A stretch of 27,435 nucleotides of DNA from Moniliella sp. 'wahieum'. Its lineage: Eukaryota. Below are positions 744-18,785 of this stretch, in pieces. The stretch covers positions 186,001-213,435 of the forward strand of contig RSEE01000107.1 of assembly GCA_003971905.1 (NCBI GenBank), written 5' to 3'. A model generated the notes under the pieces. That model ran no database searches. It saw only the letters and a list, made by a program, of their open reading frames with translations, and was not told the DNA's origin. A program made the position numbers and the translations under genes. Every line of letters starts with the position of its first letter. The stretch's first letter is position 1.

Positions 744-2846
744 ATGGCCGACGCGCTGGCCCAGGCCGCGAGCCACGTAGCGAGCACCGCTGGGACAACG
801 CAGGGCTGCGCGTGCTTATGTCCGCGCACCAGCATGTCCTAGGCGCCCTCAACAGCGGGGCGTCCCCCAGTTCTGCGGATGAGGAGGCGTGCGCATGTGT
901 GCGGGCGGCCGGGCTGATGCCTGCAGTACTCGCAACGGCCCATGCGGCACTCCCTCTGCGGGTCGGGGCGCTGGCTAATGAGTGGACGGGGAATGTGCAG
1001 GCCACATTACAGTCTTTGGAGGGGCTTTTGAGGAACGACCAGCTTTGGCTTGCTGCCGTGGGTGCTGGCCCAGCGCAGCTAGCCCGGTACGCGGATCGCT
1101 TCGTGACGTCCTTGGGTGACCATCCGGCTTCTCTCCTCTTACGAGCGCCGCCGAGACGTTGTTGGAGCACAGCTTTTCTGTGTGGGTCACTTCGGACGCG
1201 CCTCCTACGTGGTCTGCCACCCTGCCTGGATCCGCATTTGTTGCCCATGCCGCCGCGCTGGGGTTGAGCCCTGCTCTGGACCGCACACTGGACATGGTCA
1301 CGCTCTCTTACATTGATCGACTGGCCAAGAAGGCCTGCGCCGACGATGGGGACCGCACAGCGCCCCAGTTGGCGTCAATCGTTGATTCAGTTCGGACTGG
1401 GGGGCTTCTTCGCATATCGCCCTCGTCCGAGCGCGGGTTCGGTCTCAGCTGGCGTGTTCTTCCGACGATGACGCTTCCCTTGTCTCTGCTGAAAAGAGTA
1501 CGGTGGACCAAATAGTGGTGCATGCGATTCTGTCTGCACGACTGGTTCAGTTTCGCTCCCTTGCTCGCGTTTCCTGCCTCTTCCCCGCGTTGAGGGACAT
1601 CCAGACGTGCCTTGATGCCTTGGCATCGTATCCTTCAAAGGGCGATTCCGACATTATCGCCCAGATGGCGCGCACTCTTCTTGCTTCCTGGCGCACATCC
1701 ATTCTCCTCCCCGCCACGCCTACCGATGCGCTGGTGGAATTCTTTGTACTACTGGTCCATGCTTGTCGCGCCACGCTTTCTGAGGGTGGACAGGTCCTGC
1801 TCTCCCATCTCGTCCCCCCTTTACGCGCTACGCTCCGCAGCCGAAGCGATACGATCGACGTGGTGGTGTCGGCACTGCTGGGAAAGGGGGCGGCATGCCA
1901 ACTACTTCGTCCTGCTTTCAAGCGGGTGTCAAACGGGCATGACCTTGATGGAGCAGACGGTCCTAGCGCGCTTGAACCTGATGACCCCGCCGACGAGGAT
2001 GATTCGGACGATGAGGCGGCGGTGCAGGACAGAGCATGGAAACCACGCCCGCGACATGCGGGGCCAGCTTATCGCCGCACGGGCCAGTCAGACGTGGTTG
2101 GATTGCTCGTCTCCATCTTTACCGATCGCCAAGGGTTCGTGAATGCTCTTGAGCGCGCGTTCGCTACCCAGCTCCTCCATTGCGAGGGTATGATGCGAGC
2201 GATCAGGTACGTCCCCCTAGCTCCTGCTCCTCCCTGCTTTGCGGTAGCCCATGCTGACGATACAATAGGCCCACCGCTCCAAAGCTTTGAGAGACCGGTT
2301 TGGAACGACAGCCCTGTCAAGTATCGACATGATGCTCCTCGACCTGGAGCGATCCTAGAGTGTCTCAGACAAAAACCAGAACGAGATGCAGGTGGAGCCC
2401 GTAATTGTGTCGCGACAATGCTGGCCCGACCTGACGGGGGAAACGCTATTTGGGCCTGAGACGCGCTTGCGCATCCCCGGATGGGATCTGCCATCGACGT
2501 TGCGATTACCGGAACGATGGGAGAAGGCGTGGGCTGATTGGAACCATACCTGGTCCCAGGTAGCCAGGGGCAGTGTGTTGCCCCATTGGCGGCTGGGTAC
2601 CGCTGATGTGACACTGACCATGGACGATGGGCGAGTACGCAAGTTCGAGGGACTAGATGCGGCGCAGGTGGGTGTGTTGGACCTGGCAGCTGAGCAAACT
2701 AACGTGGGTGAACTCTCTGTCTCGTTGGTTATGGAGCGTCTGGGGCTGGATCGTACCTCCGCTCGGAGGGCTATGTTCTTCTGGTCTGCGCAGGTGTGCT
2801 GAGCGAGGAAGGAGGAGATGTGTTTGTCATTGTCGAGCATGCATGA
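744..2846 (+). CDS. APC2: Anaphase-promoting complex subunit 2 (cullin-like), divergent; stitched across several frameshifts, one intron and one in-frame TAG
   Basis: Start gccgccATGG at 744. APC2-like segments: PALRDIQTCL, SILLPATPTDALVEFF, LRATLRSRSDTIDVVVSALL, WKPRPRHAG..R..SDVVGLLVSIF, LRDRFG..LSSIDMMLLDL, IVSRQCWPDL, FW..QGVLSE..VFVIVE then TGA 2844-2846. Intron 2207-2268 (GTACGT..CTGAC..TAG). Start and frameshift positions are inferred. Confidence 0.85.
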
Positions 2847-8166: not shown

Positions 8167-9389
8167 ATGCCCCTCAACAACAACTCTATCCCCGTCCCGG
8201 TTGCGGACGGCAACAAGTCGCTTGTCCTCGCCAAGGTCGACACCATCTACTATGAGCAGCGCCCCGTCAAGCCCCCGGCCCCAACGAGGTCCAGGTCAAC
8301 ATCCGCCAGACTGGTGCGTCTTGCCCTTGCCCTCTGCCCCTCTTCGCTTCAGCACTGACCTTCGGCTCCTACCCAGGCATTTGCGGTAGCGATGTGCACT
8401 ACTGGAAGCACGGCTCCATCGGCGAGTTTGTTCTCACCGCGCCCATGGTCCTGGGCCACGAGTCGGCAGGCATTGTGACGTCGGTGGGCGCCAACGTGGA
8501 CAACCTCAAGGTCGGAGACCGCGTAGCGCTGGAGCCTGGTGTTCCGTGCTTCAAGTGCGAAAACTGCTTGGGCGGACAGTACAACCAGTGCCCCAAGATG
8601 ATCTTTGCTGCTACGCCGCCGTACGATGGTACGCTGGCCACGTACTACAACCTCCACTCGTCTTTTGCCCACAAGGTGCCGGACCACATGTCGCTCGAGG
8701 AGGCGTCCCTGATGGAGCCCCTGTCTGTGGCTGTGTACGCAACAGTCAACCGAGGTAAGGTGGCCCCACTGCAAAACGTGCTGGTTATTGGGGCTGGCCC
8801 GATCGGCTTGGGGTGTGGCGTGGCCCGCGGTTGGGGTGCGGCGGCCGTGACGGTGGTGGACCTGATTGACGACAAACTTACATTTGCCAAGGAGTTTGCC
8901 GCCACGCACACCTACAAGTCCTCCCGCCCGCTCGAGGGCGAGACACCTGCGCAGGCAGCCTTGCGCAACGCCAAGGCTGCTGTGAAGGTGTCGGGCGAGG
9001 AGGTGGTTGCGAATGGCGGGTTTGATTTGGTATTGGAGTGCACGGGTGCTCCCCTGTGTGGCGATGGGGATCAATGCCACCCGGCCAAAGGGCCGGTATG
9101 TCCAGGTAGGCATGGGCGTGGACAATGTGACGGTGCCGCTGGCCTATGTCAATGTGCGGGAGGTGGGTGGAGATTACGGGTTCGTTCCGATACGGGGCGG
9201 GGACGTACCGTACGGCCATTGACTTGGTCGCTTCGGGGAAGCTGCCGATCTCTAAGATTGTCACCCACCGCTTTACATTCGATGAGGCCATCAAGGCCTT
9301 CGAGACGACGGCCGCGGGTAAAGGTCCAGATGGCCGCGTCGGTCAAGGTGCAGATCAGCCAAGGCCCTGCTGATCCCAAGTTCGCTTAA
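8167..9389 (+). CDS. Zn-dependent sorbitol/xylitol dehydrogenase (medium-chain dehydrogenase), NAD-type; about 4 apparent frameshifts
   Basis: ATG 8167. Intron 8314-8376 joins TG|ICGSDVH. MVLGHESAG, GDRVALEPG, structural Zn CxxCxxC..C (CFKCENCLGGQYNQC), GAGPIG, Asp in VDL, ECTGA, GSFRY. TAA 9387-9389. Confidence 0.93.
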
Positions 9390-9859: not shown

Positions 9860-11667
9860 TTAAGCTCGTTGTAGTATGCAAATGCTCTCGGCATGGCTGT
9901 ATTAGACTGGTTAGTCGAATTCATCGATTGTGGAAGAGGAGGGACGTACCGGGTCTGCGGGAACAAGTCAGCTGCACGCAGGGAAAAGAAGGTGTAGCTG
10001 GGTCGTGGCTGAGGAGGTAGCCAACGTCCCGAGCTTGGGCATGAATGCTGGACGACACATAGATGACCAGTCTGGGGCGTAGCTTGAGCAGCCCTTCGAG
10101 GAAATCGTCATCGCACCCACGCCATGGGGGGGTAATCACTACCGTCGTCGAGTCGGGCTTAAAACTGTCGATGCGGGGCGAATAGAAAATCTCCTGAGCC
10201 GGGCCCACGTGGAAACTCACTTCGCCCAAGTCGTTAGCCATTGCGCTATGCACTGCGCATTTGACGGCTCTGGGCGAAAATTCTACCCCCACCACTTGCT
10301 TGAACATGGAGGCTAACGACAATGCAAACAGTCCCGAGCCACAGTAAGCGTCAATCAGGTACTGTGGCTGGGCTCGCTGGTCCGCAGGAAGAGTGGAACG
10401 CCAACGCACAATCTCGTGGCGTAGGTACTCGACAAAGGGGAGCAACATGGAACGATTGGCCGGGAAAGAGTCATAGGCTGGGCCATGGACCCAGATGCTT
10501 CCGACTTTCTCGTACGTGATATCATTCTTCAAGTCGGTCAGCACTTGGGACCCAATCGGTTCTTCTTGCGAAAGCGATTTGAATCTTGGGGGGTCAACGA
10601 ATCGCGAAGTATTAACGGCTTTCCGGTGAGACGGAGATGGACAGTTTGCCGAGCCTCTTCGCGTACGATTGCCAAACGGTTGTTGATCGCGTCAGTGGCA
10701 ACAGGACAAGCATCGATATCCAATAGTTGGCCGTCATCCCCATTGAATCCAATGGGGCAGGGGTCAGGATCGGGTGGGGGGATCACAGGTTTCGATAGGT
10801 CCAAAGGTGTGGGTCAACTTGGCATGGAGTTTTTCCTCTTTCTGCCACTCCGCACCACGGCAGGAACGACAAAGTGAACCTCCAGTTTGGTGCGATAGCC
10901 ATATTGCTTTGGAGAAGGTAGCGTTTCGGCCGCGGGCGGGACAAGCGCAGGGTTCAACCCACTATAATTAGCGAATGCCGTGTCGACAGCATGGCGTTTC
11001 AGTTCGAGTTGTTGTGGATAGGACAGCATCTGGTACTGACATCCACCGCAGGAGTGAAAGACCTCACAAGGAGGTGTCTGGGTCCGCATCTTGGATGGTA
11101 CCAAGATTTGCTCGATGATAGCCACAGAGTGCATCTCCAAATTAAAGGCGACCCGCACCATACCTCGTCCTCGGGCAACGATTTAGGAACTAGGATGGCC
11201 CAATCATCATGCCCCGGATCGCGCGCCAAGCCCATGCCGATGGTGGTGATTCTTTCGACTTTTACCCGAAGGATACTTCCGATGGGGTACACAAACTCAG
11301 TAGTTGTGCCCTTGGCCTTGCGTCGTTCCACCGCCTCTGGCCCCAAAAACTGATGCACCTCCAATACGCTTGGGTCCACACCAAAGGCCTTGGCCCTCTT
11401 AACCGAGGCCTGTAATGCGGGTCGGCTACTAGGTTCCGGAGGAGTCAAAGGGGGCAAAGGGATGTCTTTGCGAGGAGTACCTGTGGGAACACCCACAAGT
11501 TGCATGGCGTCCAGACGATGCCCAGAGAAGGGCGAGTGGGTTTGGCGGCCCGGTTGGCGCCGGAGCACACGGGAGGCTAATTTGCTCTTATCGGGGAGCG
11601 GATGCGCTGAAGAAAGGGATGAGGAGGAAGAGGAGGAGGAGGGAAGGAGGAAGATGATGACGAGCAT
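9860..11667 (-). CDS. TRM2: Trm2/TrmA/RumA-family RNA m5U methyltransferase homolog with degenerate catalytic motifs; frameshifted
   Basis: TRAM-like VKVERITTIGMGLAR..VPKSLP, CEVFHSCGGCQYQ, YGYRTKL, PIGF, LDIDACPVAT, LIDAYCGSGLFAL, VGVE, HAQARDVG, DLFPQT|RHAES. Intron 9897-9949. TAA 9860-9862. Start uncertain (11505, 11667 or about 11875). Confidence 0.88.
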
Positions 11668-17717: not shown

Positions 17718-18189
17718 CAATCGCATTAGTAGTTACATGTTACCCATGATTCTGAACGATATGAGTGCTGCTGAAAGGGGGAATTACAATCAATGCAAAG
17801 CGGACAATTATCAGGACGGGTTCATTTGGCGATCCCAGAGCCGTAATCGAGATAGAGATGATGACGGGTACGCAAAAATGTGCCTCTTGGCCGAATCGAA
17901 CGACCGATCTTCTCATGTCCCAGTATTTCTACTAGTGAGATGCTTTACCACTGAGCCAAAGAGGCTTGATGCTTGGTGCCATTCATGATGAAAATGCATA
18001 ACACCTTACATAAACTTTCAAACCCCCCAGTGAGGCTGCATTTGCGCTGCGGCAGTGCCAAATATTTATTGCGCCATCGTAACCCTATCCTAGCTTTTGC
18101 GACGACCGCTCCTGGCCCCCTTCTCCCGACAGCCGAGTCGTGGGAAGATAGCCTTGCCTCCCTGTCGTTGCCTCCCAACAGTCGTCAAT

Positions 18190-18785
18190 ATGTCCCTTGT
18201 GCCTATGGATGCGTCCCAGAGCTTTGCGCACATTCTGCGCTTGCTCAACACCAACGTGGACGGCAGGGTCAAGATCATGTACGCTCTGACCCAAATTAAG
18301 GGTGTGGGTCGTCGCTTTGCCAACATGGTATGCAAGAAGGCCGACATTGATCTCAACAAGCGGTATGTGGTTACACCTTCTGCCCCTACTCATTCCCCTG
18401 GACGTAGCAGGCGATGTATTTTTCCGCCTCCTCCGTTCCCGCCTCCCGAGTCCCTACCTCAGTTGTTGTGAACATGGGCCTTTTGACTCTCAGTGCTGGT
18501 GAGCTCAATTCCGACGAGCTGGAGCGTGTGGTCAACATCCTCCAGAACCCGCAGGAGTTCAAGATTCCTGACTGGTTCCTCAACCGGCAACGGGACGTAA
18601 CGACGGGCAAGTCGTCTCAGCTTGTGTCGAACAACATTGACTCGGCGCTGCGCGAGGACATTGAGCGTCTGAAGAAGATTCGTGCTCACCGTGGTATTCG
18701 CCACTACCTCCAGCTCCGTGTGCGCGGGCAACACACCAAGACGACCGGTCGTCGTGGTCGCGCCATTGCTGGCAAGAAAAAGTAA
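18190..18785 (+). CDS. RPS18: 40S ribosomal protein S18 (uS13), 2 exons, 154 aa, intact
   Basis: Exons 18190-18362 and 18494-18785. Intron 18363-18493 (GTATGT..CAG) joins [59 protein letters not shown]. Confidence 0.98.

Follow-up and report, generated by a model that had tools for sequence, protein, structure and literature searches.

A Trm2/RumA-type RNA methyltransferase homologue with a replaced active site in Moniliella sp. 'wahieum': candidate pseudoenzyme or decaying gene

Can an RNA uracil-methyltransferase gene outlive its own active site? The question is raised by a 27,435-nt stretch of contig RSEE01000107.1 from Moniliella sp. 'wahieum' (assembly GCA_003971905.1, forward-strand positions 186,001 to 213,435; hereafter the window), which carries a Trm2/RumA-type RNA uracil-methyltransferase gene on its minus strand. 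A first-pass annotation of this DNA had found three catalytic motifs altered and had proposed a 5-methyluridine (m5U) methyltransferase pseudoenzyme. We consider it about an even chance that the gene is a syntenic basidiomycete Trm2/RumA-type orthologue whose active site was lost solely in this lineage and which was kept as a catalytically dead protein. The alternatives are a dead gene, an enzyme with a new function and an error of the assembly.

All three altered motifs lie inside the gene (Table 1). The first-pass readings of motifs X, IV and VI were reproduced at their minus-strand coordinates, down to the individual codons, and the substitutions are in-frame and different in kind from indels, as had been stated. 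The three catalytic residues that had been counted as replaced are indeed replaced, but the count was too low. Six residues have been defined by mutagenesis, and five of them (RumA F263, Q265, D363, R366 and C389) are S, P, T, W and S in the window. The sole survivor is the motif VIII Glu, and two Asn that flank catalytic residues were replaced as well. In the alignment with the solved RlmCD structure, 'itppwrg' fell on 'vdpprkg' and 'yvsssi' on 'yiscnv'. The RumA residues F263, Q265, D363, R366, C389 and E424 correspond to F188, Q190, D299, R302, C324 and E358 of TrmA (PMC1904294). According to the same paper, m5U at position 54 of tRNA (m5U54) was not detectable with TrmA C324A and almost absent with D299A, and it reached 14% of the wild type with Q190A, 22% with F188A and 87% with R302A. 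It also reports that D363 and Q265 of RumA touch S-adenosylhomocysteine (SAH) or S-adenosylmethionine (SAM). The catalytic death proposed earlier agrees with the m5U54 losses of these mutants, and we infer from the published mutagenesis that m5U formation would be abolished in the window protein. Since the protein departs from its family at all three catalytic motifs, annotation as an active tRNA or rRNA m5U methyltransferase is unwarranted. Most of the features that had been listed as retained were found: motif I, DLFPQT followed by HAE, and all four Cys of the RumA-type putative [4Fe-4S] motif (C-x5-C-G-G-C at 11039-11068 and the fourth Cys at 10697-10714). For the TRAM-like domain, also on that list, the Pfam match was weak (E=0.076; 13.3 bits, the cut-off being 21); its segment aligns to the N-terminal region of the orthologues.

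Table 1. Features of the methyltransferase gene and of the intact ribosomal protein gene in the window
Feature	Position	Strand	Description and basis
Whole gene	9860..11667	-	ATG at 11667 (putative, picked by eye), TAA 9860-9862; one 3' intron; five frame breaks
Segment 1	11161..11667	-	169 aa; N-terminal region and TRAM-like barrel, ends LPEDEV; 43% identity to P0001 residues 13-162
Frame break 1	11156..11163	-	Resembles a 1-nt deletion, no homopolymer; frame shift between LPEDEV and VRVAFN; too tight for an intron
Segment 2	10853..11158	-	102 aa; C-x5-C-G-G-C (11039-11068) and QYGYRTK block; partial TIGR00479 match (51.6 bits); 52% identity to P0001
Frame break 2	~10853	-	Upstream edge of segment 3
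Segment 3	10776..10853	-	26 aa, third frame, between breaks 2 and 3; tblastn frame -2
Frame break 3	10776-10781	-	At a C6 run; downstream edge of segment 3
Segment 4	10550..10777	-	76 aa; PIGFNGDDG, fourth cluster Cys (DACPVA 10697-10714), LILRDS; translation and tblastn
Frame break 4	10545..10553	-	Resembles a 1-nt deletion at TTGGGTCCC; RLG/SQVLTDLK against TLGSQVVTDMK of P0001, spanning the break
Segment 5	9999..10550	-	184 aa; SAM-methyltransferase domain with all three altered motifs; PF05958 (29.1 bits)
Motif X	10455..10472	-	DSFPAN (CCG 10461-10463) against xFFQNN of the family; F263 to S, Q265 to P, N to A (RumA numbering)
Motif I	10326..10358	-	LIDAYCGSGLF, SAM binding, retained; identical in 15/108 homologues, LVDAYCGSGLF in 81/108
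Motif IV	10116..10133	-	TPPWRG (TPPW 10122-10133) against DPPR(K/R)G; D363 to T, R366 to W; only the two Pro left
Motif VI	10047..10061	-	YVSSS against YVSC(N/D); nucleophile Cys to Ser (TCC 10050-10052), Asn to Ser (AGC 10047-10049)
Frame break 5	9996..10004	-	Resembles a 1-nt deletion in a C run (GACCCAGC); HDP/SYTFFSLRAADLFPQT against HAPQYSIFSLRGADFFPQT of P0001
DLFPQT	9952..9969	-	Followed by R-H-A-E once the intron is removed; motif VIII Glu (RumA E424) retained
Intron (predicted)	9897..9949	-	53-nt spliceosomal intron; GTACGT, ACTAAC branch site, CAG; sequence signals
Last exon	9863..9896	-	11 codons, (R)HAESICILQRA; motif VIII HAE 9887-9895; translation
RPS18 (uS13)	18190-18785	+	Two exons, one intron, intact; homology

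We compared these motifs with those of homologues. Word-index searches returned 108 homologous proteins of at least 113 aa, namely 94 from the 'longer' search (best 57%) and 14 from the 'near' fragment search (best 42%). An exhaustive HMMER search over 1.84 billion 50%-cluster representatives gave 6029 matches, and the best 150 of them, which were examined, contained 145 new sequences. Every one of the 108 word-index homologues had FFQNN in motif X, Asp in motif IV and Cys in motif VI, and 106 had the motif IV Arg. In the aligned columns of the 145 further representatives, the Cys was kept in 141/141, D in 144/145, Q in 134/136, F in 135/136 and R in 139/145; none of these sequences lacked more than two of the five residues. 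The departure of the window from these homologues is much too large to be due to chance. The expectation that the SSS/TPPW pattern would be conserved in orthologues was not borne out: 0 of the 253 homologues (108 plus 145) shared the dead-motif pattern, the syntenic sister included. Hence no conserved clade of 'dead' enzymes exists among the sequences compared. A natural COG2265 member without the nucleophilic Cys was found neither among the records listed by literature searches nor among the 249 aligned homologues.

Even after the exhaustive search, the closest relatives were P0001 (57% identical) and P0002 (55%); the closest named relatives were basidiomycete (Tilletia, 45%). A maximum-likelihood (ML) tree of the window protein and 16 of the 94 'longer' matches placed it as sister to P0001 with 100% bootstrap. 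The two genes also share a neighbour, as P0001, an unspliced open-reading-frame call of 824 aa, has a 3' read-through that matched the antisense of the neighbouring dehydrogenase gene at 18/20 and 9/11 aa. This read-through, when aligned with 9277-9376 (the 3' end of the dehydrogenase gene, antisense), needed two frames of the window, a further indel lying near 9336-9344. P0001 and P0002 were canonical at all three motifs (15 of the 94 matches were aligned). Because the sister orthologue P0001 is canonical, the active-site loss is specific to the lineage of the window.

Judged by homology, the gene is a member by descent of the COG2265 m5U methyltransferase family and an orthologue of the canonical basidiomycete genes. 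Its largest in-frame piece matched PF05958 (tRNA U5-methyltransferase) with 29.1 bits, above the cut-off of 23, and the match spans no more than positions 201-260 of the 357 in the profile. Two pieces gave partial matches to TIGR00479 (rumA/RlmD, NCBIfam) of 72.2 and 51.6 bits, the equivalog cut-off being 183.55. An AlphaFold2 (AF2) model of the residues encoded by 9999-10541 had a mean predicted local distance difference test score (pLDDT) of 94.3, and its best PDB matches in Foldseek were RlmCD, RumA, PabTrmU54 and TrmA, in agreement with the class I SAM-methyltransferase fold. Since active homologues made up the alignment behind this model, it confirms the fold only and is blind to substitutions and to loss of function.

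The gene model was derived from three-frame translation and from tblastn searches with the orthologues P0001, P0002, P0003 and P0005. Four of its five frame breaks resemble 1-nt deletions and one a 1-nt insertion; the frame-corrected gene has 585 codons and 0 premature stops. For segment 3, tblastn aligned AEWQKEEKLHAKL...PIETCDP of the window with ANWRRDEARHAKI...PIDTHNP of P0001. The TGA at 10814-10816 was rejected as a true premature stop, since the orthologue follows a different frame over 10776-10853, with a frame break on either side. An intron of the GT...AG type excising this TGA was also rejected; by eye, its first downstream AG lies past the conserved PIGFNGDDG block. The unspliced open reading frame (ORF) calls of P0001 and P0002 enter the 3' intron at the same position as in the window, after FFPQT.

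The neighbouring genes were broken in the same manner. A Metallopep gene (PF12044, 3642-5143, minus strand) was split over four frames; the profile coordinates of its pieces abut (278/281 and 339/339) and leave no space for introns. A xylitol/sorbitol dehydrogenase gene (8256-9386, plus strand) contained three +1 shifts: one falls at a C4 run, another at G runs and the third near 9335. The density of frame breaks was 5 in 1.76 kb for the methyltransferase gene, at least 3 in about 1.4 kb for Metallopep and 3 in about 1.0 kb for the dehydrogenase; RPS18 had no frame break in 462 nt. A Pfam search of 24 further ORFs with a relaxed threshold gave nothing usable for counting frame breaks in neighbours. 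Because the neighbours are broken at a similar density, the five breaks appear to reflect the assembly, or the region as a whole, rather than anything particular to the methyltransferase gene. The window looks like an unpolished long-read assembly, and from the neighbouring genes the five 1-nt breaks are probably assembly indel errors, the true gene then probably being an intact ORF of about 585 codons. The residues of the neighbours were normal: RPS18 (154 aa) kept 46 of 46 invariant columns, and the dehydrogenase kept its conserved blocks in comparison with solved homologues. For this reason, and because random errors are unlikely to put at least nine changes on three motifs, we took the altered motifs as real. 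We also observed that the longest ORF in the 27 kb had at most 407 codons, and that only partial domains of an M24 peptidase, an amino-acid transporter and a UBX protein were detected in the window.

To compare the active site with the rest of the protein, a frame-corrected composite (591 positions, with X at six joins) was aligned with the 94 'longer' matches. At columns conserved in at least 95% of the sequences, the window kept 73 of 86 and deviated at 13, and ten controls deviated at 0-6, the six deviations of P0001 and the four of P0002 each including two artefacts of intron read-through. The motif VIII Glu is absent from the 13 deviations. Five of the six catalytic residues were replaced, compared with 8 of the 80 other conserved columns (Fisher p=2e-4); counted by motif columns, replacements were 6/14 in the motifs and 7/72 elsewhere (p=0.006). 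We also simulated neutral decay on the composite coding sequence. Neutral divergence of 0.03, 0.10 and 0.15 per site changed 6.4%, 19% and 27% of the residues, with P(0 stops) of 0.20, 0.006 and 0.0005, respectively. A neutral terminal phase as the source of the twofold longer terminal branch described below was rejected, as it needs about 0.13-0.15 per site, with P(0 stops) of about 0.001. Neutral replacement of five of six given residues needs far more divergence, and neither level can be reconciled with a stop-free ORF that keeps 73 of the 86 columns. The pattern fits a long selected, catalytically dead phase better than plain neutral decay.

Several results weigh against a retained dead protein, and they are at the same time the case for a unitary pseudogene, that is, a dead gene in which some or all of the breaks are genuine and the motifs were altered in the course of decay, possibly after a pseudoenzyme phase. 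We hold this to be possible, though clearly less probable than a pseudoenzyme. The reading frame is interrupted five times, within 1.76 kb, in the sole available sequence. As a singleton among 253 homologues, the altered pattern leaves purifying selection on the dead state not demonstrable by comparison. The 13 changed columns exceed those of every control, and eight of them lie outside the active site, compared with 0-6 deviations in total for each control. The ML terminal branch was 0.61 for the window and 0.27 for P0001 (0.58 and 0.29 without 20 motif columns). Tajima's test gave 69 window-unique changes against 36 for P0001 with P0002 as the outgroup (p=0.0013; with motif columns removed, 61 against 35, p=0.008), among which 8 of the 69 and 2 of the 36 are possible artefacts, being no more than six residues away from a frame join. 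The p values with the other outgroups, followed by those with motif columns removed, were 0.0009 and 0.007 (P0003), 0.088 and 0.31 (P0005), 0.0007 and 0.011 (P0007), and 0.017 and 0.10 (P0013). Many of the window-unique changes are radical, such as Y349R, A334R and T354P. Constraint is thus relaxed about 1.5- to 2-fold protein-wide, besides the loss of the active site, and the first-pass term 'structurally conserved' needs qualification: 73 of 86 columns, the four Cys, motif I and a stop-free 585 codons support it, but the roughly doubled terminal branch and the radical replacements do not. A short recent neutral phase of about 0.03 per site could account for the excess of about 33 residues (about 6.7%), with P(0 stops)=0.20, and plausibly for a few real indels. 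Finally, TRM2 is non-essential in yeast, and since m5U54 is dispensable there (PMC8051267), outright loss would be tolerated. Among the window-only changes outside the active site (10853-11667 and 10550-10777, minus strand) we noted LPGE to LPED, KLTPHF to KLEVHF, GATLLLR to GKPLILR, NAxxN to SAxxN and FLxQL to FLEGL.

Decay alone, however, leaves much of this unaccounted for. The similar break density of the neighbours makes the breaks uninformative about the methyltransferase gene, the 585 codons are free of premature stops, and the four cluster Cys and motif I are intact. Uniform relaxation is contradicted by the excess of replacements at catalytic residues, and clusters of 3-5 nucleotide changes exactly at the three motifs (by eye) stay unexplained; a short neutral phase is unable to explain the active-site replacements. 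The concentration of these replacements in the substrate pocket would be expected if the remodelled pocket (Ser; Pro/Ala; Thr/Trp) served another substrate or reaction, and so would the survival of motif I, of the motif VIII Glu and of the putative cluster ligands; adaptive change would also be in keeping with the accelerated branch. We nevertheless judge such repurposing unlikely. The new residues occur in 0 of the 253 relatives and so give no sign of a new conserved pocket, no new Cys was seen by eye in the domain, and cofactor binding is probably weakened, as D363 and Q265 of RumA contact SAH/SAM (PMC1904294). Equally improbable in our estimate is that the protein is neither dead nor a mere chaperone and would act either as an RNA-binding enzyme that depends on SAM and on the cluster and has acquired a new chemistry or substrate, or as a SAM-sensing, tRNA-binding regulator, in a host whose cytosolic tRNAs would lack m5U54. 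The least probable explanation, by a little, is that the consensus of an indel-prone assembly is wrong at the substituted positions and that the true sequence encodes a normal, active methyltransferase. The window is rich in single-base indels, and by eye the D-to-T change lies at the edge of a C7 run, where a pair of indels could mimic it. This explanation nevertheless requires errors at nine or more nucleotides, whichever canonical codons are assumed for the three motifs, most of them, by eye, away from homopolymers (TCC AGC for TGC AAC; TCT TTC CCG GCC for TTC TTC CAG AAC). RPS18 and the dehydrogenase show no comparable anomalies, and random errors are not expected to land on three catalytic motifs.

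If the gene does encode a pseudoenzyme, catalysis would have been lost early on the branch of the window; the active-site residues would then have drifted freely, with the remaining protein held under weaker purifying selection for a long time. This phase is read from the substitution pattern, and the gene would be alive today only if the five breaks are artefacts. Given the residue roles reported in PMC1904294, the covalent adduct between Cys and C6 would be impossible without the Cys, and hence no m5U would be made; the flipped uracil would no longer be held once the first Phe, Q, D and R are gone, and the SAM contacts of D and Q would be missing too. The protein would keep its overall fold along with the N-terminal barrel, the putative cluster domain and motif I.

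Engineered proteins offer a precedent for such a state. TrmA C324A is inactive yet folds tRNA like the wild type, and folding needs tRNA binding through the RNA-binding domain (PMC7641329). Likewise, catalytically inactive yeast Trm2 restored the stability of a mutant tRNA-Ser(CGA) (PMC8051267, citing Johansson and Bystrom 2002). Both lack the nucleophile and still bind and fold, or stabilise, tRNA, as proposed for the window protein, but they are single laboratory substitutions in an intact pocket, whereas the window protein also lost F, Q, D and R. The most plausible role of the window protein would be tRNA binding or folding without catalysis; we take this as the best guess because the family has a documented catalysis-independent activity. 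The losses beyond that of C324A may weaken RNA binding, considering that TrmA Q190A bound tRNA less tightly (dissociation constant 0.28 vs 0.02 µM without SAM; PMC7641329).

Among natural family members, Streptococcus pneumoniae RlmCD (PDB 5XJ1, 5ZQ0) was the top solved-structure match (sequence E=6e-9, fold E=1.6e-10), but TPPWRG and YVSSS of the window stand against DPPRKG and YISCN in this enzyme. Escherichia coli RlmD (RumA; 23S rRNA m5U1939; PDB 1UWV, 2BH2) has an architecture that the window gene would match, with a TRAM-like barrel (putative in the window), a C-x5-C-G-G-C...C [4Fe-4S] motif (in the window, all four Cys in sequence) and a class I SAM domain (Foldseek TM about 0.76 over 175 columns), and its motif I and motif VIII Glu are kept in the window. 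Unlike RumA, the window gene is eukaryotic with a spliceosomal intron and has five catalytic residues replaced. Yeast Trm2 and human TRMT2A (tRNA m5U54) belong to the same COG2265 family, and fungal homologues of the window gene carry the label 'tRNA (uracil-5-)-methyltransferase' in names from the Joint Genome Institute (JGI). A role of yeast Trm2 in tRNA maturation that does not need catalysis has been reported (PMC8051267), but Trm2 and TRMT2A are catalytically active enzymes. Inactive partners of the METTL14 type keep the methyltransferase fold for RNA binding or scaffolding without catalysis. They are ancient, widely conserved paralogues paired with an active partner, whereas the window protein is a single-lineage orthologue with no known partner. 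Engineered point mutants are the basis of the idea that TrmA/Trm2 proteins have a dual role and, besides methylating, chaperone tRNA independently of catalysis (PMC7641329, PMC8051267). A genuine pseudoenzyme here would be a natural, evolutionary separation of function, in which the non-catalytic role alone can maintain the gene, and the organism would be predicted to lack m5U54 unless a second enzyme is present. If the gene is decaying instead, this would be a commonplace case of a lineage losing a tRNA modification that it can do without.

Other features of the window were recorded as well. RPS18 shared 83% identity with Ustilago and Kalmanozyma and 91% with two other records; together with the basidiomycete relatives of the methyltransferase gene, this marks the source as a Ustilaginomycotina-type fungus that has no close annotated relative. 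The RPS18 protein deviates from the RHFWGLRVRG of solved eukaryotic ribosomes. We rejected substitution noise as the cause, since YL(N/H/G/Q/D)L is usual in Ustilaginomycotina; RPS18 of the window reads YLQL, and one named Ustilaginomycotina species was identical there (15 of the 120 listed matches were aligned). By comparison of these sequences, the YL-x-L form is a lineage trait and not an error. An ORF at 1386-2456 (plus strand) gave a weak ANAPC2-like tetratricopeptide repeat match (E=9e-4, below the cut-off), and the plus-strand ORFs downstream of it in other frames had no Pfam match. At 17880-17965 (minus strand), ARAGORN called a tRNA-Ser(AGA). By eye, this locus is better read as an intron-containing tRNA-Thr with anticodon AGT, with a 5-bp anticodon stem (26-30/51-55) and an intron of about 13 nt. 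Its T-loop, TTCGATT, has the canonical sequence, and a tRNA gene of the organism therefore encodes the U54 target base.

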